Shown: one piece after another, positions 1,920 to 45,152 of the stretch | How the letters are laid out: every line of letters begins with the position of its first letter | How positions within the stretch are numbered: the stretch's first letter is position 1 | Assembly (NCBI GenBank): GCA_963772515.1 | Contig: CAVYXC010000004.1 | Coordinates: forward strand, 361,131 to 425,130 | Source: Vulcanimicrobiota bacterium | GTDB lineage: Bacteria > Vulcanimicrobiota > Vulcanimicrobiia > Eremiobacterales > Eremiobacteraceae | Direction of reading: 5' to 3' | DNA length: 64,000 nt | Position numbers and translations under genes: made by a program | Notes under the pieces: generated by a model | Told to the model about the DNA's origin: nothing | Database searches by the model: none | Seen by the model: only the letters and a program-made list of their open reading frames with translations

Positions 1920-1945
1920 ATGGAGCGGTCGAATTTATTCGACCG
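1920..1945 (+). repeat. Copy a of dispersed 26-bp palindromic element ATGGAGCGGTCGAATTTATTCGACCG, between convergent pfk and anti-sigma genes
   Basis: Exact consensus; 9-bp inverted arms CGGTCGAAT/ATTCGACCG with 2-nt spacer; recurs at 5 other loci in window. Confidence 0.8.
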
Positions 1946-2413: not shown

Positions 2414-2983
2414 TCATAATTTCGTCTGTCGCGGCAAAAGTTGAGGCACGCCGGGCGGATATGAGCTCGGATGCTCGACCGCAAAGCGACGCGAAAGCGC
2501 GGCGAGGTACTCGAAATCCTCCCAGATCGCGTCGTCGCCATGCGCGAGCCGCTCGAGCTTCACATAGCCCTCCAAACGCCGCCACAGCCCGTCGATCGGC
2601 CCGCAGTACTGCTCGAAGAACAAGCGCTGGTCGACGACGCCGTTACGCACCAACGTGCCCATGACCTCGACAGCGTTGGCGATCATCAAAACGGCTTGGC
2701 GAAGCACTTCGTAGCGCTCGTTGCCGTGCGTCGCTCGCAGAGCCGCGTCGTCGGTGACGAACTTGCGGTACCCTTCGTCGTTCGAAAGATCGCCCTCGCG
2801 ATGGATCAGCGCCACAGCTTGCTGATGGGCGTCATCGTCGAGCATGGTGCGCAACGTGAGAAAGCCCGTGATCTGGTTGCTCGCCCGCAGGTGGCGCAGT
2901 TGCACGAGCGCCGCGATCGCTGACGCTCCGATGACGATCGCCGTCGCGATGGTCGCGATGGCGGTGATCAGTTCAAGCGACAT
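2414..2983 (-). CDS. Uncharacterised membrane-anchored protein, paralog B of the family, 45 bp upstream of the anti-sigma kinase gene
   Basis: 189 aa; N-terminal TM helix; VQLRHLRASNQ and WEDFEYLAALSRRFAVEHPSSYPPGVP motifs shared with paralog A. Confidence 0.55.
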   Translation of the reverse strand: MSLELITAIATIATAIVIGASAIAALVQLRHLRASNQITGFLTLRTMLDDDAHQQAVALIHREGDLSNDEGYRKFVTDDAALRATHGNERYEVLRQAVLMIANAVEVMGTLVRNGVVDQRLFFEQYCGPIDGLWRRLEGYVKLERLAHGDDAIWEDFEYLAALSRRFAVEHPSSYPPGVPQLLPRQTKL

Positions 2984-4226
2984 GTTCCCCCTTTGATCCT
3001 ACAGACGACCACGCCACCAGATTGACGCCGAAATAGTAGCCTAGCTCGCGATAATCGCTGATGTCCAGCTTCACCAGATCCGCAGGCCGGCCCGGCGCGA
3101 TGCAGCCGGCGACGCCGGCAGCATCAAGCGAGCGCGCCGCCATCACGGTGATACCGGCGATCACCTCAGGTGCGCTCATCCCTAGCCGGCGTCGAGCGAC
3201 GTGTGCGACCTCTTGCAGCGAGTAGCACGGACAGGTGCCCGGGTTGAAATCAGTTGCCAGCGCGACCGGAACGCCCTCGCCGATCAGCGCGCGCGCCGGC
3301 GCAAAGCGCGGCAAGCTGAGATACTGCGCCGTCGCCGGGCACAGCACCGCGATCGTGCCTGCGTCTCGCAGGTTAGCGATATCGGCATCATCGATGAAGT
3401 TGAGATGATCGGCCGTCATGCAGCGCAGCCGCGCCGCGAGTGCTGCACCGCCGCTTGCGCCAAGCTCGTCCGCGTGGATGCGCAGCTGCATACCGCGCGC
3501 CGCGCACGCTTCGAGAAAGCGTGCGCTTTGTCGCGGCGTGAAATACCCGCGCTCGCAGAACGCGTCGGCGAACCGGGCGATGCCCGTCTCGGCCGCTGCG
3601 GGAAGAATCGTCGCGATGAGCTCGTCGACGAACGCGTCGTAGGAGGTGAATTCGGGCGGCAGCGCGTGCGCGCCGCAAAACGTCGCGATGACGTGCGGTA
3701 TATCAGCGGCGCGATCCAACGAGGCCAACGCCTGGAGCGACCTGCGCTCGCCCGCGGGAGTGAGCGTGTAGCCCGTTTTGATCTCCGCCGTCGTCGTGCC
3801 ATGTTCGAGCATGGTGGCCAGCCGGCGTCGTCCGGCCTGGATCAATCCATCGAGATCGAGCGCGCGCGTCTGCTCGACCGTGTAGGCGATGCCCAGTCCG
3901 GGCGGCTCGCCGCGTGACAGCGCCTCGAAGTCGGCGACGCGGTCACCCGCGAAGAGCGCGTGGGTGTGCGCGTCGACGAACCCGGGCATGACGACGCACC
4001 CCTGCGCGTCGATCACCTCCACATCGGCATATGGAGCGGCCGAATCTATTCGACCGTGCATGACCTCCACGATCACGCCATCGCGCACGATAACGGTCGC
4101 GTCGCGCATGATGCCTAGATCGTCTTCGCCGACGCGGGCGTCGCCGTTGACGCGCGCCGCCAGCGGCGCCATGGTGAGCAGCGTCGCGTTGACGATCGCA
4201 TACGATGCCGCCGTCGGCGCTACCAC
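2973..4226 (-). CDS. hutI: Imidazolonepropionase
   Basis: ORF 2973..4319; amidohydrolase motifs (PGFVDAHTH, KTGYTL, IHADE); probable GTG start overlapping ftcD stop, alternative start at 4319. Confidence 0.8.
   Translation of the reverse strand: MVAPTAASYAIVNATLLTMAPLAARVNGDARVGEDDLGIMRDATVIVRDGVIVEVMHGRIDSAAPYADVEVIDAQGCVVMPGFVDAHTHALFAGDRVADFEALSRGEPPGLGIAYTVEQTRALDLDGLIQAGRRRLATMLEHGTTTAEIKTGYTLTPAGERRSLQALASLDRAADIPHVIATFCGAHALPPEFTSYDAFVDELIATILPAAAETGIARFADAFCERGYFTPRQSARFLEACAARGMQLRIHADELGASGGAALAARLRCMTADHLNFIDDADIANLRDAGTIAVLCPATAQYLSLPRFAPARALIGEGVPVALATDFNPGTCPCYSLQEVAHVARRRLGMSAPEVIAGITVMAARSLDAAGVAGCIAPGRPADLVKLDISDYRELGYYFGVNLVAWSSVGSKGEHVA
4031..4056 (+). repeat. Copy b of 26-bp palindromic element, antisense and in-frame inside hutI (encodes HGRIDSAAPY loop)
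   Basis: ATGGAGCGGCCGAATCTATTCGACCG, 2 mismatches to consensus. Confidence 0.7.
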
Positions 4227-5095
4227 GTCACCGCGCGCGGATCGATCGAGTCGAGATGGAGATAGTATGCGGCAGATTCGGCGATCGCTGAGAGCGGTGA
4301 CAGCCCGACCAATTCGCACCCGGCGACGGAGACGCCGGCGGCTGCCGCCTCGCGCCGGATCAGTTCGGTCACGCGATACAGCGGAATCGCATTGACGTCG
4401 ACGACGTTCATCGACACCTGGACCATCGAATCGGACAGCGCAAAGCCGAGTGCCTTGATGCCGACCAATCCGCCGCTGCGCCGGCGCACGGCAAGCGCGA
4501 TACGCTCGGCCAGTGCCAGATCCCCGCTGGCGAGGTTCACGTTGAAAGCGATGAGGAAGTTGCGCGCGCCGACCGCCACGATGCCCGCGCTTGGATGCAG
4601 CGCCGGTTCGCCCGTGTCGGGATGGCGCGCTCGATCTTTGACCGTCTCGATCAGCCCTTCGAACTGGCCCTTGCGCACGTTGCCCAAGTCGCGCCGTTCC
4701 GGCCGCGTCGCCGCGAACTCATAGAAGTAAGACGGCAGCTGGTATCGCTCCCACAGCTGCGCGGCGCACTGGCGCGCGAGCCCGACCGCGTCGTCCATCG
4801 TCGCGCCGCTCACGGGGATGAACGGGATGACGTCGACCGCCCCCATGCGCGGGTGCTCGCCGCTATGCGAGCGCAGATCGACGCGCTCGATCGCCGCGCC
4901 CGCGAGCCGCACGGCGGCGCCGAGCACGCCTTCGCCGCTGCCCACGAAGGTGTAGACAGAGCGGTTGTGGGCGCTGTCGCTTTGCGTGTCGAGCAACACG
5001 ACATCCGGACCGGCCGCCGCGGCGCCGATCGCCGCGATGACATCCGCGCGCCGGCCTTCCGAAACGTTAGGAACGCACTCGAAGACGCTTGCCAT
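4220..5095 (-). CDS. ftcD: Glutamate formimidoyltransferase (formiminotransferase domain only)
   Basis: Internal Met of ORF 4220..5995 ([16 protein letters not shown]...); FT-domain-like; N-terminal part of long ORF is antisense shadow of mccB; ATG verified at 5093-5095. Confidence 0.75.
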
Positions 5096-5164: not shown

Positions 5165-6772
5165 ATGGCCGTCATAGAATCGCGCGTCGATCCCGCGTCG
5201 CCAGAGTTCGCCGCAAATCGCGAGCGCTTTGTGTCGCTGCTCGAAGAGCTTGCGGCGCGCCACGCGCTCGTCGCGCGCGGCGGCGTCGCTGAAGCGCTGG
5301 CAAAACACGTCGCGCGCGGCAAGCTGCCTGCGCGCGAACGCGTCGAGCTGCTCATCGACCCGAATTCCGCGTTTCTCGAGTTTTCCGCGCTCGCCGCATG
5401 GGATATGTACAAGGGCGACGCGCCGAGCGCCGGCATCGTCACCGGCATCGGGCACGTCGAAGGCGTCGAGTGCATCATCGTCGCCAACGACGCCACCGTC
5501 AAAGGCGGCACCTATTTCCCGCTGACGGTCAAAAAGCATCTGCGCGCGCAGGAGATCGCCGAGCAGAACCATCTGCCATGCATCTATCTGGTCGACTCGG
5601 GCGGCGCGTTCTTGCCGCTGCAGGACCAGGTCTTCCCGGACCGCGAGCACTTCGGGCGTATCTTCTATAACCAAGCGCAGATGTCGCGCAAACGCATCCC
5701 GCAGATCGCGTCGGTGATGGGGTCGTGCACCGCCGGCGGCGCGTACGTCCCCGCGATGTCGGATGAGACGATCATCGTCAAAGGCGAAGGCACCATCTTT
5801 CTCGGCGGCCCGCCCTTGGTCAAAGCGGCGACCGGCGAGATCGTCAGCGCCGAAGACCTTGGCGGCGCGGACGTGCACGCGCGCATCTCCGGCGTCAGCG
5901 ACCACTATGCGCTCAACGACCGTCACGCGCTCGCCATGTGCCGGGAGATCGTCGCCAACCTCAATCGCGCCAAGCGCACTCCCTGGCCGGTGCAAGAATC
6001 GCGTCCGCCCAAGTACGATTCACAAGAGCTCTACGGCATCGTGCAGCGCGATTGGCGCAAACCGTACGAAGTACGCGAAGTGATCGCGCGCATCGTCGAC
6101 GGCAGCGAGTTCCACGAATTCAAGACGCTCTACGGCGAGACGCTGGTGTGCGGCTTCGCCCACATCGAAGGCAACCCGGTGGGCATCTTGGCCAACAACG
6201 GCATCTTGTTCTCCGAAAGCGCGCTCAAGGGCACGCACTTCATCGAGCTGGCGTGCCAGCGCGGCGTGCCGCTCGTGTTCTTGCAGAACATCACCGGTTT
6301 TATGGTCGGTAAGAAATATGAAGAGGGCGGCATCGCCAAGGACGGCGCCAAGCTCGTGATGGCGGTGGCCAACGCGAACGTTCCCAAATTCACCGTCATC
6401 ATCGGCGGCTCGTTCGGCGCCGGCAACTACGGCATGTGCGGGCGCGCGTTTTCGCCGCGCCAGCTGTGGATGTGGCCCAACGCTCGCATCTCGGTCATGG
6501 GTGGCCCGCAAGCGGCCAACGTCCTGTTGACGGTCCGCCTCGAAGCGCTGGAGAAGAAGGGCGCGACGATGACCGAACAGGAGCGCGCCGAATTCATGCG
6601 TCCGACGCTTGAGAAATATGAGGCCGAAGGCAACCCCTACTATAGCACTGCGCGGCTGTGGGATGACGGCATCATCGATCCGGCCGACACGCGGCGCGTG
6701 TTGGGCATCGGCATCTCAGCTGCCGCCAATGCCCCGCTGGAACCCACGACCTTCGGCGTCTTTAGAATGTAG
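5165..6772 (+). CDS. mccB: Methylcrotonyl-CoA carboxylase carboxyltransferase (beta) subunit
   Basis: Internal Met of ORF 4595..6772 ([22 protein letters not shown]...); acyl-CoA carboxyltransferase family; final codons ATG TAG lie in palindromic element copy c1. Confidence 0.85.
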
Positions 6773-6782
6773 CGGTCGAATT
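6767..6782 (+). repeat. Half copy c1 of palindromic element (ATGTAGCGGTCGAATT), contains mccB stop codon
   Basis: Left half of consensus only; 9 nt upstream of full copy c2. Confidence 0.6.
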
Positions 6783-6791
6783 ACAGATAGG

Positions 6792-6814
6792 ATGTAGCGG
6801 TCGAATTTCGACCG
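6792..6814 (+). repeat. Copy c2 of palindromic element (ATGTAGCGGTCGAATTTCGACCG), in mccB-hydratase intergenic region
   Basis: Consensus arms with shortened spacer. Confidence 0.75.
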
Positions 6815-6830: not shown

Positions 6831-7613
6831 ATGGCCGACAATGTGACGGTTGCTCGTGACGGCGGCGTCGCGCGCTTGACACTGAACAATCCGGAGAAGC
6901 GCAACGCATTCGACCCGACCATGATCCAAGCGATCAGAGGGATCTTCGATGGCTTCTCCCACGACGAAGCGCTGCGCGTGGTCGTTCTCGCCGGAGCAGG
7001 GCCCGTGTTCTGCGGCGGAGCCGACGTCAACTACATGCAGGCGAGTCTCGACATGACGGCCGACCAGAATCTCGAGGACTCCATGAAGCTCGCCGGCATG
7101 CTGCATGCCGTGAACGCGTGCCCCGTGCCGGTCCTCGCACGAGTTCACGGTGCGGCATTGGGTGGCGGAGCTGGCGTGCTCGCCGCGTGCGATCGCGTGA
7201 TCGCGGCCGACGACACGTCGTTCGGCTTCACCGAAGTGAAACTTGGCCTCGTGCCGGCCGTCATCTCACCGTTTGTGATCGCCAAGATCGGTGAGACGCA
7301 CGCCCGAGCGCTCTTCACCACCGGCGAACGATTCGACGGGCAACGCGCGCTGCGCATCGGGCTCGTCCATGACGTGGTCCCGGGGGCCAATCTCGATGCG
7401 GCCGTGCAGGCGGTCATCGGCGAAGTGCTCAGCGGCGGTCCAGCCGCCACGCGATTGGCAAAGGAGATCGCGCTTAACGTGCCGCGGCTCGCGCCGGAGC
7501 AAATCGGGCCGTGGACCGCGCGTCGCCTCGCTAACCAGCGCACCAGCGACGAAGGACAAGAAGGTCTGCGCGCGTTTCTTGAAAAGCGCGACCCCTCGTG
7601 GCGCCAAAAATAA
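6831..7613 (+). CDS. Enoyl-CoA hydratase (methylglutaconyl-CoA hydratase-like, crotonase family)
   Basis: 260 aa; crotonase fold motifs; position between MCC subunits; RBS GGAG upstream. Confidence 0.8.
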   Translation: MADNVTVARDGGVARLTLNNPEKRNAFDPTMIQAIRGIFDGFSHDEALRVVVLAGAGPVFCGGADVNYMQASLDMTADQNLEDSMKLAGMLHAVNACPVPVLARVHGAALGGGAGVLAACDRVIAADDTSFGFTEVKLGLVPAVISPFVIAKIGETHARALFTTGERFDGQRALRIGLVHDVVPGANLDAAVQAVIGEVLSGGPAATRLAKEIALNVPRLAPEQIGPWTARRLANQRTSDEGQEGLRAFLEKRDPSWRQK

Positions 7614-9565
7614 GACGTATCGAACGCCTCCTTATCGCCAATCGCGGTGAGATCGCGGTGCGCATCGCCCGCACGTGCCGCGCGATGGGCATCACGTCGA
7701 TCGCCGTCTATTCGGACGCCGACGCCGAAGCGCTGCACGTGCGCGAGTGCGACGAGGCGCTGCGCATCGGTCCGGCGCCCGCGCGTGAGTCGTACCTCGA
7801 TATCGGCAAGATCGTCGCCGCCGCTCGCGGCTCGCGCGCGCAGGCCGTTCATCCTGGCTACGGATTTCTCTCCGAGAATGCCGATTTCGCTCAGGCGTGC
7901 CTGGACGCGCAGCTGACCTTCGTCGGCCCGCCACCCGCGGCGATGGAGGCGGTCGGCGATAAGATCGCAGCCAAACGCACGGCGGCGACGGTCGGCGTCC
8001 CGACCGTGCCCGGTTATCTGGGCGAGCAACAAGACGTCGACGTGTTCGTCCGCGAGGCCAAGCGCATCGGCACGCCGCTTATCGTCAAGGCCGCAGCGGG
8101 CGGCGGCGGCAAGGGGATGCGGCTGGTGCGCGACGTGGCGCAACTGCGCGACGCCCTCGAAGGCGCGCAGCGCGAAGCGTGTTCGGCGTTCGGCGATGGC
8201 ACTGTTTTCCTCGAGAAATACTTGGAGTCGCCGCGCCACGTCGAAGTGCAGATCCTGGGCGATCGTCACGGCGCATACGTCCACCTCAACGAGCGCGATT
8301 GCTCTATCCAACGCCGCCATCAGAAGATCGTCGAAGAAACCCCTTCGCCGGCGGTCACGCCACAGCTGCGCGGCGAGCTCGGTGCAGCGGCGTTGCGCAT
8401 CGCTGCGGCGGTCGGTTATGAGAATGCCGGCACCGTCGAGTTCATGCTGACTCCGGACGGGTCGTTCTACTTCCTCGAAGTGAACGCCCGATTACAGGTC
8501 GAGCATCCGGTGACCGAGATGGTCACGGGCGTCGATCTGGTGCGCGAGCAGATCGAGATCGCAGCGGGCGGGAAGCTTCGACTTGCGCAAGGTGACGTCG
8601 CGCCACGCGGCCACGCGATCGAAGCGCGCATCTACGCCGAGGACCCCGACAATGGTTTCTTGCCCTCAAGCGGGCGCGTGCTCGACGTGCACTGGCCGTC
8701 TGGCCCGGGGATCAGAGTGGACGCGGGCATCGACGCTGGGTCGACGGTGACGACCGATTACGACCCGATGTTGGCCAAAGTCATCGCGCATGGTGCGTCG
8801 CGCGAAGAGGCGCTTGGCCGTCTGCAAACGGCGCTGCGCGAGTGTCACGTGGCGGGGATCTCCACCAACGTCGGATTCCTGCGCTGGCTTGTCCACGAGC
8901 CGGACTTCGCGGCCGGCAAGGCGGCCACCGATTTTCTCGACACGCATCGCTGGCCGGGTGCAAGCGTAGACCCCGACAACGAGGAGCTGTGGGCGTTGGC
9001 GGGAGCGGGCACGCTGCAAACGCTGGGTTCCTGGCGGCCGGCTCCGCAGCCTCGCACCATACGTTTCGTCGGGCCCGCCGCCCACACGATCGATGTGACC
9101 TTCGACTGGCGCACCGGCGGGTGGCGCTGCCGCGAAGGAGAGCGCGAGGCGATCGTGCGAGCGGCTGGCAAGCCCTCGCACTTCGACGTGCTTGAGTCAG
9201 CGCAGCCGCACCGAGCGCGCGCGTGGCGCACCCGCGACGGCGTGGAACTCGCCGTCGGCGAGCCGCCGCAGCGACGTACATACACGGTCGACGCCCTCGA
9301 AGACGTCGCGCACGCTGGCGCGCATGCCGCCGCGCGCGCGGGTTCCGGCTCCGCGACCGCGCCGATGAGCGGCACGGTGGTGAAGATCGAATGCGCGCCA
9401 GGTGCGCCCGTGAGTGCGCACCAAGTGCTTGCCGTGATCGAGGCGATGAAGATGGAACACGCGATCGCCGCGCCCTTCGATGGCCGCGTGCGTTCGGTCA
9501 ATGTCCGGACGGGCGATCGCGTCGATGCCGGCGCGGTGCTCGTCGAGATCGAGCCGGCGGCATGA
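7598..9565 (+). CDS. mccA: Methylcrotonyl-CoA carboxylase biotin carboxylase + BCCP (alpha) subunit
   Basis: 655 aa; LIANRGEIA N-terminus; C-terminal biotinyl motif EAMKMEH; GTG start overlapping hydratase end. Confidence 0.85.
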   Translation: MAPKIRRIERLLIANRGEIAVRIARTCRAMGITSIAVYSDADAEALHVRECDEALRIGPAPARESYLDIGKIVAAARGSRAQAVHPGYGFLSENADFAQACLDAQLTFVGPPPAAMEAVGDKIAAKRTAATVGVPTVPGYLGEQQDVDVFVREAKRIGTPLIVKAAAGGGGKGMRLVRDVAQLRDALEGAQREACSAFGDGTVFLEKYLESPRHVEVQILGDRHGAYVHLNERDCSIQRRHQKIVEETPSPAVTPQLRGELGAAALRIAAAVGYENAGTVEFMLTPDGSFYFLEVNARLQVEHPVTEMVTGVDLVREQIEIAAGGKLRLAQGDVAPRGHAIEARIYAEDPDNGFLPSSGRVLDVHWPSGPGIRVDAGIDAGSTVTTDYDPMLAKVIAHGASREEALGRLQTALRECHVAGISTNVGFLRWLVHEPDFAAGKAATDFLDTHRWPGASVDPDNEELWALAGAGTLQTLGSWRPAPQPRTIRFVGPAAHTIDVTFDWRTGGWRCREGEREAIVRAAGKPSHFDVLESAQPHRARAWRTRDGVELAVGEPPQRRTYTVDALEDVAHAGAHAAARAGSGSATAPMSGTVVKIECAPGAPVSAHQVLAVIEAMKMEHAIAAPFDGRVRSVNVRTGDRVDAGAVLVEIEPAA

Positions 9566-22080: not shown

Positions 22081-22099
22081 ATGGAGCGGTCGACTTTAG
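22081..22099 (+). repeat. Half copy d1 of palindromic element (ATGGAGCGGTCGACTTTAG)
   Basis: Matches left part of consensus; 11 nt upstream of full copy d2. Confidence 0.6.
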
Positions 22100-22110
22100 A
22101 GCGCCCGTTT

Positions 22111-22136
22111 ATGGAGCGGTCGAATTTATTCGACCG
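22111..22136 (+). repeat. Copy d2 of palindromic element (exact consensus) in divergent hutH/cmk promoter region
   Basis: ATGGAGCGGTCGAATTTATTCGACCG exact. Confidence 0.8.
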
Positions 22137-31434: not shown

Positions 31435-32115
31435 ATGAAGATCGCGCCTTCGCTGTTGTCGGCGGATTTCGCCGATATCCGCGCGCAGATCGATCTCGTG
31501 GCGCACGCGGGCGCTGATTATCTCCATCTCGACGTCATGGACGGACGCTTCGTGCCCAATCTGACGTGGGGTCCGAAGATCATCCACGATCTACGCCCGC
31601 TCTCAAGACTGCCCTTCGACACGCATCTCATGATCGTCGAGCCCGAGCGCTATGTGGCCGACTTCGTGAAAGCCGGAGCGAACATCGTCACCGTGCATTG
31701 GGAGGCGACGGTGCACGCCAACCGCCTCATCCACCAGATCAAAGAGCTGGGCGTGCGGGCGGGCCTCGCGATCAACCCCGCCACGTCCTTGTCCGTGCTC
31801 GATGAGATCTTGCCCTACATCGACCTGCTGCTGATCATGAGCGTGAATCCAGGCTTTGGAGGCCAATCGTATATCCCGACGTCGACGGCGAAGATCGCCG
31901 CCGCTCGCAAGATCATACGCGAACGCACGTTGTCGATCGAGATCGAAGTCGACGGCGGCGTGACGCTCGACAACGTTGTCGAGGTGAGCCGCGCGGGCGC
32001 GGACACCGTCGTGATGGGTGCGGGGCTGTTCGGCACGCCCGACCCAGCCGCGACGCTGCAGAAAGCGCGTGACGTAGTAGCGCATTCGAACGCGCCCGAC
32101 GCGAGATCTCATTGA
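31435..32115 (+). CDS. rpe: Ribulose-phosphate 3-epimerase
   Basis: Internal Met of ORF 31264..32115 (MKIAPSLLSADFADI...); RPE family. Confidence 0.85.
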   Translation: MKIAPSLLSADFADIRAQIDLVAHAGADYLHLDVMDGRFVPNLTWGPKIIHDLRPLSRLPFDTHLMIVEPERYVADFVKAGANIVTVHWEATVHANRLIHQIKELGVRAGLAINPATSLSVLDEILPYIDLLLIMSVNPGFGGQSYIPTSTAKIAAARKIIRERTLSIEIEVDGGVTLDNVVEVSRAGADTVVMGAGLFGTPDPAATLQKARDVVAHSNAPDARSH

Positions 32116-38502: not shown

Positions 38503-39538
38503 AATAATTTTCGCGCTGTTGTGCGGGCTGCTCGGCTTGGCTGCCGGGATCGAGCTCGGGCGCATTCCTGCGCTCGCAAGCCAGACCGGCACGCTGGCGC
38601 ATCTGCGCGACATCGGCATTCCGACGCTCATCGCGCTCATCGGCGTGGCGATCTCGCCGTATCTGGCCACCGGCTTCGAACGAGTGTCGAGCGCGTTCGA
38701 AGATTCGATCGTGAGCATGGCCCCCGCCGAGGCGCTCTCAGGCGCGATCGGTCTGGTCATCGGGTTGATCGTCGCGTTCTTGGTGCGCGATGTTTTCCAA
38801 CCCATCAATCAGATGCCGCGCTTCGGCCCGATCATCTCGATCGTCGTCTACATCCTTATCACGCTGTTCTTCGCGTACACAGGGCTGCGCATCGGCGTGC
38901 GCCAGCGCTTGTCGAGCTGGGTGCGCACCGGTCCGCGCGACGGTGCAGCGCCGCCCAAACTGCTCGACACCTCGGTCATCGTCGACGGCCGCGTGCTCGA
39001 AGTCGTGCAGGCGGGCTTCATCGAGGGCCGGCTGCTCGTGCCGAAATTCGTGCTCAAAGAACTGCAGTCGATCGCGGACTCGTCCGACTCCATGCGCCGC
39101 GCGCGCGGCCGGCGCGGGCTGGAGATCCTCAATCGCCTGCGCGAGATATCGGGCAGGCTGGAGATCATCGACAAGGATGCGCCCGAGCGCGACGTCGACA
39201 GCAAGCTGGTGACGCTGGCGCGCGAGCTCGAAGCGCCGATCCTGACCAACGATTACAATCTCAACCGCGTCGCGCGCCTGCAAGGCGTGACGATCCTCAA
39301 CGTCAACGAGCTCGCCAACGCCATCAAGCCGGTGGTGCTGCCCGGCGAAGAGATGTCGGTCAACATCGTCAAGGACGGCAAGGAGCAGAACCAAGGCGTC
39401 GGCTACCTCGAGGACGGCACGATGATCGTCGTCGAGAACGGCAAGCGGCTCATCGGCGAGACCGTCGGCGTGCAGGTGACGTCTGTGCTGCAGACCGCAG
39501 CGGGCCGCATGATCTTCGCCAAGCCCAAAAAAGCGTGA
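38483..39538 (+). CDS. yacL: PIN/TRAM domain membrane protein (YacL-like)
   Basis: 351 aa; N-terminal TM region, PIN-like and C-terminal TRAM-like domain; precedes ispD as in Bacillus. Confidence 0.7.
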   Translation: MGKLLLRIIFALLCGLLGLAAGIELGRIPALASQTGTLAHLRDIGIPTLIALIGVAISPYLATGFERVSSAFEDSIVSMAPAEALSGAIGLVIGLIVAFLVRDVFQPINQMPRFGPIISIVVYILITLFFAYTGLRIGVRQRLSSWVRTGPRDGAAPPKLLDTSVIVDGRVLEVVQAGFIEGRLLVPKFVLKELQSIADSSDSMRRARGRRGLEILNRLREISGRLEIIDKDAPERDVDSKLVTLARELEAPILTNDYNLNRVARLQGVTILNVNELANAIKPVVLPGEEMSVNIVKDGKEQNQGVGYLEDGTMIVVENGKRLIGETVGVQVTSVLQTAAGRMIFAKPKKA

Positions 39539-40224
39539 ACGCCGCCGCGATTCTGGCCGCCGCGGGTCGCGGCGACCGGCTCGGCAGGCCCAAGCAGTTG
39601 CTCGACCTCGCGGGCAAGCCGATGGCGGCGTGGTCGCTGGAGCTGTTCGAGCGCACCCCGGCGATCGAGGCCGTCTACATCGCGTGCGAGGCGGACGAGC
39701 GCGAGCGCTTCGAGGCGCTCGCGAAAGAATACGCACCGTCAAAAACGGTCATCGTCGTCGCCGGGGGCGCGACGCGTCAAGCCTCCGTGCACGCGGCGCT
39801 ATCGGTCGTGCCGCCCACCTCGCACCTCGTGCTGGTGCACGACGGCGCGCGCCCCTTCGTCACGCTCGACATCGTGGAGCGGACGATAGCAGCCGCGCAT
39901 CACGGCGTCAGCGCCATCGCCGCCGTGCCGGTGAAAGACACGATCAAACAGGCGCGTGAAACCGCGGTGGTCCGCACGATCCCGCGCTCGACGTTGTGGG
40001 CCGCCCAGACGCCACAAGTCTTCCCCTACGACGTTCTCGTCGCCGCGCATGACCGTGCGATCGCGGACCGGGTGGTGGACACCGACGACGCTGCGCTCGT
40101 CGAGCGCCTCGGCGCCCCCGTGAACCTGGTCATGGGCTCGTACGCCAACATCAAGATAACGACGCCTGAGGATTTCGAGATCGCGCTGTGGATCGCGCAG
40201 CGCATGGAGGCCGCCCGCCGATGA
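39535..40224 (+). CDS. ispD: 2-C-methyl-D-erythritol 4-phosphate cytidylyltransferase
   Basis: C-terminal part of ORF 38521..40224 (VNAAAILAAAGRGDRLG...); GTG start in GTGA overlap with yacL stop. Confidence 0.85.
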   Translation: MNAAAILAAAGRGDRLGRPKQLLDLAGKPMAAWSLELFERTPAIEAVYIACEADERERFEALAKEYAPSKTVIVVAGGATRQASVHAALSVVPPTSHLVLVHDGARPFVTLDIVERTIAAAHHGVSAIAAVPVKDTIKQARETAVVRTIPRSTLWAAQTPQVFPYDVLVAAHDRAIADRVVDTDDAALVERLGAPVNLVMGSYANIKITTPEDFEIALWIAQRMEAARR

Positions 40225-40700
40225 GAGTCGGCTTCGGATTCGACGCGCACCGGCTGGTCGCCGATCGCCCGCTGGTCCTAGGCGGCGTGCGCATCGCTTT
40301 CGATAAAGGCCTCGAGGGTTTTTCGGATGCCGACGTGTTGACGCATGCGGTCATCGACGCGGTGCTCGGCGCCGCAGCCCTGGGCGATTGCGGTTCGCGC
40401 TTTCCGGCGGGCGACCCGAAGTACGCCAACGCGAACAGCATCAAACTGCTGGAGCAAGCATTCACCTTGCTGCGCCATGCGAATCTGCGCGTGGGCAATC
40501 TGGATTGCACGATCGTCGCCGAACGCCCGGCTTTAGCCGGCCATCTGAACGCCATGCGCGCAATGCTCGCCAACGCGCTTGAGATCGCCGAAGCCGACTG
40601 CAGCGTCAAGGCCAAGCATACCGAGGGGCTCGGATTTACGGGTACAGGCGAAGGTATGGCGGCATACGCGGTGGCGACCGTCGAGGCATCAACCCCTTGA
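40221..40700 (+). CDS. ispF: 2-C-methyl-D-erythritol 2,4-cyclodiphosphate synthase
   Basis: Internal Met of ORF 40188..40700 (MRVGFGFDAHRL...); ATGA overlap with ispD stop. Confidence 0.9.
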   Translation: MRVGFGFDAHRLVADRPLVLGGVRIAFDKGLEGFSDADVLTHAVIDAVLGAAALGDCGSRFPAGDPKYANANSIKLLEQAFTLLRHANLRVGNLDCTIVAERPALAGHLNAMRAMLANALEIAEADCSVKAKHTEGLGFTGTGEGMAAYAVATVEASTP

Positions 40701-40720
40701 CCCCCGGGCCCCGACCAGAT

Positions 40721-40746
40721 ATGGAGCGGTCGAATAAATTCGACCG
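40721..40746 (+). repeat. Copy e of palindromic element (ATGGAGCGGTCGAATAAATTCGACCG) at 5' end of gltX
   Basis: Consensus with AA spacer; encodes MERSNKFDR in gltX frame. Confidence 0.75.
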
Positions 40747-42253
40747 CGCCGAAGAGATCGCCGACGATCGTCGCTCGGGTTCCGTGCGCGTGCGCTTCGC
40801 ACCGGCGCCGACCGGCTCGCTGCACGTCGGGGGCGCCCGCACCGCGCTCTTCAATTATCTCTATGCGCGCAAGAACAACGGCGCGCTGGTGCTTCGCTCC
40901 GAGGACACCGACGTCGGCCGCTCGACGCTCGAGTCCGAGCGCGCGATCCAGGATGATCTGCGCTGGCTCGGGCTGAGCTGGGACGAAGGCACGGATGTCG
41001 GCGGCCCGTATGGACCATATCGCCAGACCGATCGCACCGACCGATACGGCCTCGCGGCCGCGCGGCTGCTCGAGATCGGCAACGCGTACTTGTGCTATTG
41101 CACGCCGCAAGAACTCGAAGCGGAGCGCAAAGAGGCCGAGCGACACGGCCAAGCGCCTAAGTATTCAGGCAAGTGCCGCGAGCTCACGCGCGAACAGCGC
41201 GCGGCGCTGGAAGCGGAAGGCCGCAAGCCGGCGGTCCGCTTCATCATGCCGCAGCGCGACATCTACGTCGAAGATCTCGTGCGCGGGTCGGTGCATTTCC
41301 CGGCCGGCTCGATCGGCGATTTCGTCATCATGAAATCGGATGGCAATCCTGCGTATAATTTCGCCGCCGTCGTCGACGACGCCGAGATGGCGATCACCCA
41401 CGTGATCCGGGCAGATGAACATCTTCCCAACACGCCGCGCCAAGCGGTGCTCTACGAGGCGCTCGACTTGCCGCTGCCGCTCTTCGCCCACGTCTCGATG
41501 ATCCTCGCGCCGGATCACCAGAAGCTGTCCAAGCGCCACGGCGCGACGTCGGTTGCCGAGTACCGCGAACAGGGCTACCTGCCCGCCGCGCTTATCAACT
41601 ATCTGGCGCTGCTCGGGTGGTCGCCGGGCGACGATAGCGAATTCTTCACTCTCGACGAACTCGTGGGACGATTCTCGCTTGAGCGCGTGACCAAGAGCCC
41701 GGCGGTGTTTGATCATGGCAAGCTGCGTTGGTTCAACGCGCATTACTTGCGCGCGCTGCCCCGCGACGACCGGGCGGAACTGTTCGCGGCGTGGGCACAG
41801 CGCGATCCCGAAGTGACGTCGTCAGTCGATATCAACGATCCGTTGTGGCGCGGCTTGTTCGCCGACGCGATGAGCGATCACGTCGAAACGCTGGACCAGG
41901 TCCCGGCGCTGGCCAAGCAGGTTCTCACGGACGAAATCCGCATCGCACCAGAATCTCGCGACGCGCTGTCGGACAGCGGGTCGCGAGCGCTCGTCGAGGA
42001 CCTCGCGGGCATCGCGGCAGGCTGCAGAGATCGCGTCGCGTTCAGCGCAGCGACCTCAAAGGAAGCACTGGCTGCGCTTGGAGCCAAACACGGCGTGAAG
42101 GGTCGAGCGTTGTTCAGGCCGATTCGCATCGCTGCGACCGGCGACGAACACGGCGTCGAGCTCCCAATTCTCTTGCCGCTTCTCGGTCCCGCCCGACTGG
42201 CCTCGCGCCTGCGCTCGTCGTTGAATCAGACGGGCGCTTCCGCCAGCTCGTAG
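40721..42253 (+). CDS. gltX: Glutamate--tRNA ligase
   Basis: ORF 40697..42253; VRVRFAPAPTGSLHVGGARTALFNY motif; start either ATG 40721 (inside palindromic element) or TTG 40697. Confidence 0.85.
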   Translation: MERSNKFDRAEEIADDRRSGSVRVRFAPAPTGSLHVGGARTALFNYLYARKNNGALVLRSEDTDVGRSTLESERAIQDDLRWLGLSWDEGTDVGGPYGPYRQTDRTDRYGLAAARLLEIGNAYLCYCTPQELEAERKEAERHGQAPKYSGKCRELTREQRAALEAEGRKPAVRFIMPQRDIYVEDLVRGSVHFPAGSIGDFVIMKSDGNPAYNFAAVVDDAEMAITHVIRADEHLPNTPRQAVLYEALDLPLPLFAHVSMILAPDHQKLSKRHGATSVAEYREQGYLPAALINYLALLGWSPGDDSEFFTLDELVGRFSLERVTKSPAVFDHGKLRWFNAHYLRALPRDDRAELFAAWAQRDPEVTSSVDINDPLWRGLFADAMSDHVETLDQVPALAKQVLTDEIRIAPESRDALSDSGSRALVEDLAGIAAGCRDRVAFSAATSKEALAALGAKHGVKGRALFRPIRIAATGDEHGVELPILLPLLGPARLASRLRSSLNQTGASASS

Positions 42254-42260
42254 GAGCGCC

Positions 42261-42806
42261 ATGGCGGAGCTGACGCGCGCGCGCTTTCTGGGGTTTGTAG
42301 CCGCGACATTCGGCATCGCTGAGATGTCGGAGCGGGCGAGTGCGGCAGTGAAGATTGAGGACCCCACTGGTTTCACCTTTGGTCCGATGGTGAAGGACCT
42401 CGCGCTCGGCGTGAAACTCGAAAACCAGGCCGTTGACGTCGGTGCGCCAATCGCGTGCACGTTGGCCATAAAGAATTTCGGGCCGCCGCGACACATCTTC
42501 CGGGTCGGCGCGATGGAAGAATACGCGCTCACGGGCACCGGTCCGCGTGGTGCTTCGATCGAGCACGCTGGTCCCGGTGACCCCTTCGCCGGGAGCATCT
42601 CCGCCGATGGACCCTACCTCGAGACTGGGCAGGCATACGAGAAGAGTACAGCCGATCTCCGTAAGAGCTACGATTTCAGCGCGCCAGGCGAGTACACGTT
42701 TTCATTTGCAACCGTGATCACCCAAGGCCTGGGAGGTCCCTGGTATGCGGCCTTGACGTCGAACACCGTGACGTTGGACGTGCGCAATGCGGCGACACAA
42801 CCTTGA
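42261..42806 (+). CDS. Hypothetical secreted protein
   Basis: 181 aa; hydrophobic N-terminus with RxR motif; no recognised domain. Confidence 0.4.
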   Translation: MAELTRARFLGFVAATFGIAEMSERASAAVKIEDPTGFTFGPMVKDLALGVKLENQAVDVGAPIACTLAIKNFGPPRHIFRVGAMEEYALTGTGPRGASIEHAGPGDPFAGSISADGPYLETGQAYEKSTADLRKSYDFSAPGEYTFSFATVITQGLGGPWYAALTSNTVTLDVRNAATQP

Positions 42807-43023
42807 CGGCGACTCGCTTCCAGCAGGCCGGAGGGCGGCCACGCCTAGCGCGCGAACCCATTGTCATCATGGCCACCGCAGACAACCCTGCCCTCCCCCG
42901 CCCGGCCATCGCCCCGTCCTGTCGTTGTTGACCGGCGCTTACGCCACGCCCGGTCGCGCGCCCGCCGCGCGCATGTGAAAGAAGAAGCCCGCGCGACGCG
43001 CGGGATGCGAGCAGGACGAAACC

Positions 43024-43701
43024 ATGCAACGAGACTCCATCTTCCGGCAGATACGCCTCGACTGGCGCGCGTGCTTTGAGCGCGACCCCGCGGCGCGCAA
43101 CTGGCTCGAAGTGCTGCTGGCCTATCCGGGTTTTCATGCCCTCTTCTGGCACCGGCTGATCATCCATCCGCTGCACCGCGCCGGCATACCCGTCATTCCG
43201 CGCGTGCTGTCCAACATGTCGCGGTTTTTCACCGGCATCGAGATCCACCCGGGCGCGGAGATCGGCTCGGGTCTGTTCATCGATCATGGCATGGGCGTCG
43301 TGATCGGCGAGACGACCGAGATCGGGCGCAACTGCACGCTCTATCAAGGCGTGACCTTGGGCGGCACGTCGCTGCAGCGCGGCAAGCGCCACCCGACGCT
43401 TGAAGACAACGTCATCGTCGGCGCCGGCGCCGGCATCATCGGCGCGGTGGTCATCGGCGCCGGTTCGAAGATCGCGGCGGGGGCGGTCGTCGTCAAATCG
43501 GTCCCGCCGAACTGCACGGTTGTCGGTGTGCCTGGCCGCGTGATCTATCAGGACGGCAAGCCGGCCGAACCGGTGTTGCCGCGTGTGGACATGCCCGACC
43601 CCGAAGCGGACGCGATCGCCGCGCTGCAGCAACGGGTCGAGGCGCTCGAGATGGGCTTCCGAAAGCTCGAAGAGCCGGATGGCAGTAAGACTCTACAATA
43701 G
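43024..43701 (+). CDS. cysE: Serine O-acetyltransferase
   Basis: 225 aa; hexapeptide repeats; SAT N-terminal domain. Confidence 0.85.
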
Positions 43702-45152
43702 CCGCACCCGGTCCCTCGAAGAGCTCCAGCCGCTCGAACCCGGGCGGCTGACGATGTACGTGTGCGGCATGACGCCCAGTTTTCACCCGCATCTGGGTCA
43801 CGCGCGCACGTTCTTGACGTTCGACGTCTTGCGCCGTCACCTCGCCGCGCGCGGCTACAAGGTCGACTACGTCCAAAACGTCACCGATATCGACGACCGC
43901 ATCATCGAGCGCGCCGCCACCGAAGGCGTGCCCTGGGACGACGTTGCCACTCGTTATCTGGCGGAGTACGAGGCGTGCGCCACAGCGGCTCGGGCTTATA
44001 CCGCCCGATGACGAACCGCGCGCGACTCAGGAAATCTCTTCCATTATAGAGCTCATCTCGGGGCTCGTCGCCAAGGGCGCGGCGTACGAGTCGGGAGACG
44101 GCGTCTATTTCGCGGTGGACGAGGGCGTATTTCCGCATTACGGTGAGCTCAGCCACCAGAGCATCGAAGAACTGCGCGCCGGCGTGCGCGTCGCCGTGCG
44201 CGAGGATAAGCGCGGGCGGTTGGACTTCGCGTTGTGGAAGAAGGCCAAGCCCGGCGAGCCGAGCTGGCCGAGCCCCTGGGGCCCCGGCCGGCCGGGCTGG
44301 CACATCGAGTGCTCGGCAATGGCGCGCAAGTATCTCGGGGATCAGATCGACATCCATGGCGGCGCCGCCGACTTGATCTTTCCGCACCACGAGAACGAAG
44401 TCGCGCAGACCGAGACGTTCACCGGCAAGCATCCGATGGCGAATTTCTGGGTGCATGCGGGATTGCTCAACGTCGACGGTCAGAAGATGAGCAAGTCGCT
44501 TGGCAACTTCACGCCGCTCACCCAGATGCTCGACCGCTATCCGGCGGCCGTGATCCGCTACCTGTTCCTGCAGACCGGCTATCGCAAACCGAGCAACTTC
44601 ACGGCTGACTCGATCGAAGCGGCGGGCAAGGGATTGCGCGGGCTGTACGCCGACCTCGACAAACTCCGCGCCCGCGCGCGCCTAAACCCCATGGAGCGGT
44701 CGGATTCATCCGACCGGCAACGTGAGAGCGCGATCGAAGAATTCAACGCATTTCTCGATGACGACCTGAACACCGCGGGCGCCATCGGCTGGCTGCAGAC
44801 CTATGTGAAGCCTTCGATTAAAGATCGTACAGGGGCCGATGTTGTTGCCGTCGTCGAGCAGGCGCTCGAACGGCTTGGCCTGCCGGTGGACGCCGAGAAC
44901 GCCGGCGTCGCTGCGACGTCATCGCAGCTCAAGTTGAGCAAAGCGGCGCGCATGGAGTTCTCGATCATCACCGGCGATCGCGACGCACCCGACGACGACT
45001 TGGTCTCAAAGGTCGTCGCGATCCGCGAAAAGGCGCGCAAGTCCAAAGATTGGGCGCAGTCGGATCGTCTGCGCGACGCGCTCGCGCGCGCGGGCATCGC
45101 GGTCAAAGACACCGCGACGGGTTCGCAGTGGAGCGTCGATGGCGGCAGATGA
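43679..45152 (+). CDS. cysS: Cysteine--tRNA ligase, interrupted by apparent +1 frameshift near 43980-43990
   Basis: N-part in ORF 43583..44011 (MAVRLYNSR...HLGHART), remainder in ORF 43944..45152 (PPDDEPRAT..., KMSKS); removing one nt around 43984 restores a continuous class-I motif alignment; contains in-frame element copy f. Confidence 0.75.
44691..44716 (+). repeat. Copy f of palindromic element (ATGGAGCGGTCGGATTCATCCGACCG) in-frame inside cysS
   Basis: Arms carry compensatory A>G/T>C changes preserving perfect 9-bp inverted repeat; encodes [10 protein letters not shown]. Confidence 0.75.

Follow-up and report, generated by a model that had tools for sequence, protein, structure and literature searches.

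Where does translation of a gene begin when a palindromic repeat sits across its 5′ end? The question is raised by the junction of ispF and gltX in a 64,000-nt stretch of a Vulcanimicrobiota (Eremiobacterota) genome, hereafter called the window. The element in question (40721..40747, + strand) carries an ATG, lies just downstream of the ispF stop codon, and can be read in the frame of gltX as MERSNKFDR. Our analysis indicates that this is a repeat resembling the GTAG-type repetitive extragenic palindromic (REP) sequences, which would have been inserted into the coding region of the N-terminal tail of the glutamyl-tRNA synthetase (GluRS), an essential enzyme, and would be translated there. The gltX open reading frame (ORF) extends over 40697..42253 (+) with 518 codons counted from a TTG that overlaps the end of ispF (40221..40700, +), and we consider this TTG the most likely initiation codon. 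The element itself is most likely a harmless, tolerated passenger in a floppy tail and not a start signal.

The gltX frame is open from 40583. Ahead of the conserved core of the protein, which begins with VRVRFAPAPTG, only two codons of the ATG, GTG or TTG type are in frame, TTG 40697-40699 and ATG 40721-40723. An earlier reading made from the DNA letters alone (the sequence-only reading) had named these same two starts, and they are indeed the realistic ones. It had also noted that the TTG overlaps the ispF stop TGA 40698-40700 (ccTTGAcc), which is correct: the 4-nt TTGA (40697-40700) is in frame with VRVRF with no stop codon in between, the layout of cistrons overlapping through an NTGA. A Shine-Dalgarno-like GAGG is found within the 3′ end of ispF (40683..40686, +), 10 nt upstream of the TTG. 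For comparison, GTC-GAG-G stands 7 nt ahead of the overlapping start in the related loci L081, L161 and L162, and the ATG of ispF itself has a GGAGG at 10-nt spacing. No Shine-Dalgarno sequence was found in the 14 nt upstream of ATG 40721.

Downstream of the TTG, seven tail codons (TPGPRPD, 40700..40720, +) lead to the element. Its nine codons are followed by twelve more, AEEIADDRRSGS (40748..40783, +), which end in a motif conserved in the clade, [ED]R[RS]SG. Next comes GTG CGC GTG (40784..40792, +), holding the two V codons of VRVRF in the first Rossmann-fold strand. These GTG codons, at 40784 and 40790, form a theoretical downstream start that we judge unlikely. They also qualify a statement of the sequence-only reading, according to which no ATG or GTG is present before VRVRF. 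While literally true, the statement overlooks that both V codons of the motif are GTG, and its corollary, that initiation beyond the element would require a non-canonical codon, is wrong. What disfavours a downstream start is the comparison with relatives. An ATC at 40757 was also considered as a non-canonical start and was dropped, having no spacing to any Shine-Dalgarno-like sequence.

For this comparison we used 19 Eremiobacterota ispF-gltX junctions, namely the window and 18 retrieved relatives, which are not phylogenetically independent. The scans of genomes and metagenomes that yielded them were aimed at GltX relatives and not at the element pattern. Two relatives are particularly informative. 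L081 (GltX 90% identical to that of the window) shares with the window both the TTGA overlap and the element, which is read in an identical frame, and its V codons are GTA and GTC. L002 (80% identical) carries the element at the same place with the element ATG out of frame, and both of its V codons are GTC. The tail copy as a whole keeps frame in the window, L081 and L002. With no start-type V codon, L081 and L002 need an upstream start. Likewise the first V codon is GTA in L163 and L164, and the V positions across relatives are GTA, GTC, GTT or ATA.

The substitutions in the tail point the same way. In the 12 codons from the element to VRVR, the window and L081 differ at 2, 1 and 7 sites in the first, second and third codon position, respectively (5 synonymous and 3 non-synonymous codons). 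The corresponding differences in the 484 codons of the gltX core are 34, 25 and 161 (133 synonymous and 46 non-synonymous). As the two patterns match, at least the part of the tail that follows the element appears to be coding and, given that no canonical start exists between the element ATG and VRVR, translation would begin at or upstream of that ATG. Furthermore, [ED]R[RS]SG is present in the database proteins P0002, P0004, P0005, P0009 and P0012, and [ED]RSSG ahead of VRVR is conserved as a peptide while its codons vary. Judged by this coding signal, the element is translated whether the TTG or the element ATG is used, and the description as a 9-aa in-frame insertion, which the sequence-only reading had offered as its second option, is the best one.

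Which of the two starts is used is best addressed by the conservation of the overlap. An in-frame NTGA start/stop overlap is found in 14 of the 19 junctions, ten times as ATGA, as TTGA in the window, L081 and L007, and as GTGA(TG) in L002; L161 has TAGTG at the junction. Between the last base of the ispF stop and the first V codon there are 8 to 104 nt, a length that nonetheless equals 2 mod 3 in 17 of the 19 junctions. Counting only distinct long spacers, the frame is kept in six of eight (binomial estimate, p about 0.02). Between the TTG and the element, the window and L081 are separated by 3 substitutions and a 6-nt indel that keeps the frame, and the ispF 3′ ends of the two differ by a 3-nt indel. 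Taken together, the overlap in 14 and the frame relation in 17 of the 19 junctions indicate that a coupled overlapping start is the ancestral, conserved arrangement, and TTG 40697, coupled to ispF, is probably the main gltX start. The 5′ ends of gltX in relatives, to which the sequence-only reading had pointed as a check, thus sustain an upstream start (V codons GTA/GTC in L081 and GTC/GTC in L002) and favour the overlap position over the element ATG.

Accepting this start, we propose that ribosomes ending ispF at UGA 40698-40700 would re-initiate at the overlapping UUG 40697, assisted by the GAGG 10 nt upstream. They would then read 29 non-conserved codons, nine of them (40721-40747) derived from the element, before the first beta-strand VRVRF. 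The tail of this subclade would have grown by hairpin-forming insertions with the reading frame kept, and the element ATG would be at most a secondary start.

Several points weigh against the TTG. As a start codon it is weak, and for P0001, the database protein identical to the GltX of the window and encoded on a 2.65-Mb ENA contig, the ATG was called instead. The 10-nt spacing between GAGG and TTG is at the long end of the workable range. The genomes with TTGA for ATGA (the window and L081) are exactly those with the element ATG in frame, a coincidence equally compatible with initiation having passed to the ATG. For the segment between TTG and ATG, seven codons and one indel that keeps the frame are too little to prove translation. 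Both V codons of the window are GTG, making a downstream start possible if the window genome is considered by itself, and the phylogenetic non-independence of the relatives applies to all counts of junctions.

Three further observations concern the junction itself. A predicted stem GUCGAGG/CCUUGAC (40680-40701) pairs the Shine-Dalgarno-like GAGG with the UUG/UGA overlap and is kept in L081 with a shorter loop; ribosomes terminating on ispF would open it, and as a sign of coupling the stem is only suggestive. In the minimum-free-energy fold, a small local hairpin, GATCG-CCGA-CGATC, lies in the tail coding region (40756..40769, +), and L081 carries CTATC...GATAG at its position. Finally, among the 19 listed + strand genes in a 21-kb stretch of the window, four have TTG as their called start (32112, 34996, 38519 and 46010), and the one at 32112 is a second TTGA overlap with an upstream stop. 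TTG starts thus appear common in the annotation of the organism.

We then turn to the element. The copy in gltX consists of the head ATGGAG (40721-40726), the arms CGGTCGAAT (40727-40735) and ATTCGACCG (40738-40746) and an AA loop, with an extra pair between G40726 and C40747. It is the palindromic element that the sequence-only reading had described, at coordinates that match the sequence, and it belongs to a dispersed repeat family. Allowing up to 3 mismatches, the 20-nt palindrome has nine matches over both strands at five sites of the 64-kb window compared to 0.02 expected. In total the family comprises eight copies at six loci of the window, with head and arm at 1920, 4031, 6767/6792, 22081/22111, 40721 and 44691. 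The unit is 26-27 nt long and has 9-bp arms around a 2-nt centre, which fold into a stem of 8-9 bp with a 4-nt loop. It therefore falls within the REP definition of a short stem-loop unit (20-40 bp, stem of 6-13 bp, short loop), and we regard the family as a REP-like hairpin family, probably of the GTAG type.

The hairpin is well maintained. Over the eight full copies in the window, L081 and L002, 98.6% of the stem positions are paired, and two stem pairs show compensatory double changes from A-U to G-C. The hairpins fold at -14 to -17.5 kcal/mol with z of about -4 to -5.6. Between the window and L081, the gltX element differs by two loop bases only (AA versus TT, changing K to L), although the neighbouring coding DNA has diverged by about 15%. 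To judge from this comparison, the excess identity suggests that the hairpin is constrained or that its copies have been homogenised.

Every copy has a tag on one side of the hairpin only, GGAG in six of the window copies and GTAG in the other two (6767 and 6792) and in the copies of L001. The GGAG tag is preceded by AT, and an ATG belongs to the head in all eight window copies, intergenic ones included. The head lies on the + strand in all eight, whatever the gene direction or the type of spacer. This uniform orientation is a bias of DNA strand and not of transcription (six loci, two-sided p about 0.03). The GC skew of the window is flat and uninformative on the direction of replication. The uniform orientation, the one-sided tag, the partial head-to-tail duplicates and a polymorphism among relatives in both presence and orientation suggest single-strand DNA mobility of the kind associated with REP-associated tyrosine transposases (RAYTs). 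No RAYT was found by tblastn in the window and the 19 related loci, where nothing scored below E = 0.8; this was a weak test, made with an E. coli YafM sequence on about 2% of the genome. The element was observed in the window, L081, L002 and L001, all of them loci retrieved as GltX relatives with no scan directed at the element, and extrapolation from eight copies per 64 kb gives a few hundred copies per 2.65 Mb.

With the family in hand, the remaining explanations can be weighed. In one of them the element ATG 40721 is the functional start, the overlapping ATG having decayed to TTG and initiation having moved 8 codons downstream. The hairpin behind it would then tune initiation or need ispF ribosomes to melt it. 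The region has no ATG other than ATG 40721, the annotation of P0001 begins there, and this codon is in frame in precisely the window and L081, the two genomes where the overlap is a weak TTG. It lies 21 codons before VRVR, near the 19 codons of a Shine-Dalgarno-driven ATG (MHVAS...) in L163 and L164. It is also only 20 nt past the ispF stop, reportedly within the reach of ribosomes re-initiating after termination in the scanning model of Adhin and van Duin. Against it stand the missing Shine-Dalgarno sequence and the 9-bp hairpin of -17.3 kcal/mol, which spans +6 to +27 of this ATG and so begins within the initiation footprint. In L002 the element persists although its ATG is out of frame, and the frame between TTG and ATG is kept across the 6-nt indel. 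As for the ATG as such, its occurrence in the heads of all eight copies means that its presence is no evidence for selection as a start. With an overlapping start in 14 of 19 junctions besides, we find initiation at the element ATG, the possibility raised in the title of the sequence-only reading, rather unlikely. We are equally hesitant about a more elaborate form of it, a doubtful one in our view, in which the repeat-head ATG was exapted in the lineage of the window and L081 as a start and coupling device, the hairpin tying gltX to the ribosomes of ispF. In a broader version, coding linkers of housekeeping genes (gltX, cysS and hutI) would be the sites where the family is kept by preference, owing to a role of its hairpin at the RNA level.

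Two other explanations would take the element out of the coding sequence or give it a task of its own. If gltX starts at GTG 40784 (MRVRFAPAPTG), the element is extragenic, the 83-nt spacer is untranslated and the hairpin may be a stabiliser of the mRNA or a barrier to processing. This start was the first that we considered, most members of the clade having the form MxxxVRVR. GTG 40784 or 40790 would yield a GluRS of canonical length, and homologues in the PDB begin 2-3 residues before RFAP. In most GltX of the Eremiobacterota, VRVR is preceded by only 4-6 residues, compared to 17-23 annotated in the nearest relatives, and the annotation of relatives is inconsistent (about 5 to 27 residues). 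Moreover, a study of REPs (PMC3733652) warns that those ‘in’ N-terminal coding regions are mostly annotation artefacts. We rejected it as the main model, however, on the V codons of L081, L002, L163 and L164, which are not starts, and on the coding-type substitutions in the 12 codons upstream. In addition there is no Shine-Dalgarno sequence before 40784 (tcgggttccGTG), the [ED]RSSG peptide is conserved across varying codons, and 17 of 19 junctions preserve the frame relative to ispF, all of which makes a start at this GTG improbable. The last explanation holds that the repeat is neither selfish nor mobile and serves as a functional palindromic site regulating gltX, for example as an operator bound by a dimeric protein or as a signal made of structured RNA. 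This would fit the perfect palindrome, the stem conserved through compensatory changes and without a substitution between the window and L081, and the G-U pair that a copy in hutI forms on the transcribed strand. Nevertheless, copies occur in unrelated contexts (in cysS, antisense in hutI, in a gap between convergent genes and in a divergent spacer) with no evident regulon logic, and no Rfam family matches. The asymmetric head, the fixed strand orientation, the partial head-to-tail duplicates and the polymorphism among relatives are hallmarks of REPs. We give a regulatory site very little credence.

Translation from the TTG through a tolerated repeat is the reading that we retain, and it agrees with what can be predicted for the protein. 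In PDB alignments, solved GluRS structures match the 518-residue ORF from residues 29-31 onwards. In an AlphaFold model (40 sequences, mean predicted local distance difference test score, pLDDT, of 86), residues 1-27 have a pLDDT below 50, and the first strand comprises residues 31-34. This places the nine element-encoded residues in a poorly conserved tail, and according to the model MERSNKFDR is most likely part of a 29-residue N-terminal tail ahead of VRVRF. The sequence-only reading held that a mobile element had been recruited into the gene. The word implies a function, while the evidence from the low-confidence tail, and likewise from the copies in cysS and hutI, fits a passenger that is tolerated. 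The simplest reading would be a selfish or neutral repeat that persists within genes only at positions tolerated by the protein.

The other copies illustrate this tolerance. Three of the six loci in the window are intragenic (hutI, the gltX tail and cysS) and three extragenic (1920, 6767/6792 and 22081/22111). The copy in cysS (44691..44717, +) is in frame and reads MERSDSSDR in a variable linker before DDDLNT; its stem is a compensatory GGAT/ATCC variant. Orthologous copies are found in the same linker of L081 (about 8373-8399) and, decayed, of L002 (7249), while the L001 linker holds half a copy (about 7367-7386), which has a GTAG head and points the other way. In L003, L004 and others the cysS linker is similar in length and unrelated in sequence. 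This pattern suggests repeated insertion or a tolerated hotspot. The copy at 4031..4057 (+) lies inside the minus-strand gene hutI (imidazolonepropionase, 2973-4319). It encodes HGRIDSAAP in a surface loop, aligning with the loop FAGQKGAEAGY of the B. subtilis imidazolonepropionase (PDB 2bb0), and the only imperfect pair of its stem is G-U in the mRNA strand and a C-A mismatch in the other. Neither the cysS nor the hutI copy disrupts the frame, and in both cases the protein sequence before and after the insertion can be aligned with homologues. So far as alignment can tell, coding loops and linkers tolerate the family.

Among the extragenic loci, the copy at 1920..1945 (+) fills a 29-nt gap between convergent genes. 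Two loci contain head-to-tail pairs, in both of which the first copy is reduced to the head and left arm. The pair at 6767..6814 (+), with ATGTAG heads, follows a carboxyltransferase gene, and the ATG-TAG of the head at 6767 provides the last Met codon and the stop of that gene (..FGVFRM*). The other pair (22081..22136, +) lies in the divergent spacer between hutH and a cytidylate kinase-like (cmk-like) gene.

A second hairpin, CC(C/T)GAGCGNAGCTC(G/A)GG, was observed at the ispF-gltX junction, where it reads PERSSG just before VRVR. It is found at 3956-3996 in L001, 1326-1366 in L082, 3980-3996 in L002 and about 4019-4035 in L161, as well as at about 162-178 and 236-252 in L163 and about 831-847 and 900-916 in L164; in L163 and L164 a copy also lies in the untranslated ispF-gltX spacer. 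The third codon positions covary (CCT..TCA versus CCC..TCG), which suggests that the hairpin itself is maintained. The tail insertions of the subclade are the REP-like element and this locus-specific hairpin CCYGAGCGNAGCTCRGG, the latter present once or twice. We considered CCYGAGCGNAGCTCRGG as a second dispersed family and rejected it, as within the retrieved loci it occurs at the ispF-gltX junction only and the other exact-stem matches look like chance.

The window has a G+C content of 63.6%, and the placement in Eremiobacterota (Vulcanimicrobiota) is based on GltX homologues and related loci. The order of genes is a yacL-like gene with PIN/TRAM domains, ispD, ispF, gltX, an unknown ORF, cysE and cysS, with 4-nt start/stop overlaps linking the yacL-like gene, ispD and ispF. 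The upstream cistron ispF (YgbB, PF02542) is supported by the ORF listing and by a called gene with a Pfam match in the ENA contig L165. The gltX product is, by its domains and alignments, a bacterial GluRS (class I aminoacyl-tRNA synthetase, PF00749 and PF19269). Residues 29-509 align with PDB 2o5r (E = 2.7e-126), and the alignment with solved GluRS shows the HIGH-type motif HVGG and the KMSKS-type motif KLSKR. Scans of the whole window with Rfam at gathering thresholds and for tRNA and tmRNA gave no match, so that the junction is not explained by a known leader or riboswitch.

An independent Logan assembly, L166, is identical to the window across 39433-43308. In cysS (43679-45152) the window has an extra A at about 43984 (GCCACAGCGG versus GCCAC-GCGG in L081), which splits the gene into two ORFs. 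L165 shares the extra A and its cysS is called as two genes; in an essential gene of a probable long-read assembly, a consensus error is the most likely cause. L165 equals the window over 39-43.5 kb, is separated from it by 23 single-nucleotide polymorphisms in cysS (43.5-45.0 kb; 43527-45014), and differs again beyond 51 kb, possibly through an indel shift. A strain mixture or a polishing difference could account for this.

How does this family relate to known systems? We compared it with the REPs described by Di Nocera et al. 2013 (PMC3733652) and Nunvar et al. 2010 (PMC2817692). GTAG-tagged REPs mostly have stems of 6-9 bp, and many of their short loops fit TY (PMC3733652). The Eremiobacterota unit of 26-27 nt is similar, with its 9-bp stem and a 2-nt loop that is mostly TT, CT or TC, as are the unpaired tag at a single end, the dispersed copies, the sub-families with complementary stem changes and the G-U pair on the transcribed strand. 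REPs have been reported within genes, including tRNA synthetase genes, and at NH2 termini, as have tags supplying stop codons (PMC3733652), and the copies inside ORFs and the head TAG at 6767, which gives the upstream ORF its stop, have the same character. The family differs in its tag, which is mostly GGAG, whereas a G in second position is absent from the degenerate forms in the literature (GYAG, GYRG, GTRG, GTMG and GTGG; PMC3733652). GTAG REPs typically flank a RAYT gene, which the weak search described above did not detect in the window. They are mostly extragenic and downstream of ORFs, in contrast to the three intragenic loci of six here, a small sample. The pairs in the window are head-to-tail, a rare type in the described families, and Eremiobacterota is not among the phyla named in the accessible text of PMC3733652. 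Unlike the N-terminal REPs of that paper, the gltX copy has comparative support for its translation.

Translated palindromic repeats are known from Rickettsia palindromic elements (RPEs). RPE-1 is roughly 100-150 bp long and encodes tens of residues. Like the present family, RPEs are palindromic repeats in frame within functional, even essential, protein genes, in surface or terminal segments, and N-termini decorated with RPE-1 were reported as expressed in vivo (Ogata et al. 2000, summarised in PMC3733652). The copies in cysS, hutI and the gltX tail are likewise in-frame insertions in ORFs that appear still to encode functional proteins. However, the unit here is 27 nt with nine residues, its host belongs to Eremiobacterota and not to Rickettsia, and its sequence appears unrelated to RPEs. 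RPE hosts have reduced, intracellular genomes, whereas a free-living bacterium hosts the present family, its genome contig measuring 2.65 Mb and its GC content in the window being 63.6%.

The putative coupling resembles translational coupling through NTGA overlaps in the 4-nt gltX/ispF overlap and in the Shine-Dalgarno-like GAGG, which lies within ispF. The yacL-like gene and ispD are arranged in this way too, as are ispD and ispF, and so are ispF and gltX in 14 of the 19 junctions. Unusual features are the weak UUG, the 29 non-conserved codons after it and a second in-frame AUG 8 codons downstream. As regards mobility, a hairpin with a short conserved 5′ tag is also characteristic of the substrates of insertion sequences of the IS200/IS605 type and of RAYTs (TnpA-REP), which are handled by enzymes of the Y1 HUH type (PMC6006769, PMC8266576). 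The single DNA-strand orientation in the window regardless of gene direction is similar to elements that use the lagging-strand template (PMC6006769, PMC8266576). The strand bias comes from six loci only.

Intragenic and N-terminal REPs, stop codons supplied by REPs and translated palindromic elements (RPEs) have thus already been published. Likely undescribed is a family of GGAG/GTAG-tagged REPs in Eremiobacterota, an uncultured phylum. Also new are the high intragenic fraction in the window, which includes two aminoacyl-tRNA synthetase genes, and what appears to be comparative evidence for real translation of an N-terminal copy. A probable correction of an annotated start follows from the alignment of the junctions, from P0001 with 510 aa starting at the repeat ATG to 518 aa starting at the TTG that overlaps ispF.

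The finding leaves the understanding of GluRS and of REPs unchanged. Its interest is that N-terminal REPs are usually dismissed as misannotation, while the copy in gltX appears truly coding. It shows how hairpin insertions that keep the frame can be accommodated in a protein tail, between a coupled start codon and the first element of structure. The family would thereby be a convenient system for the study of single-strand (RAYT-type) mobility and of the cost of translated repeats.

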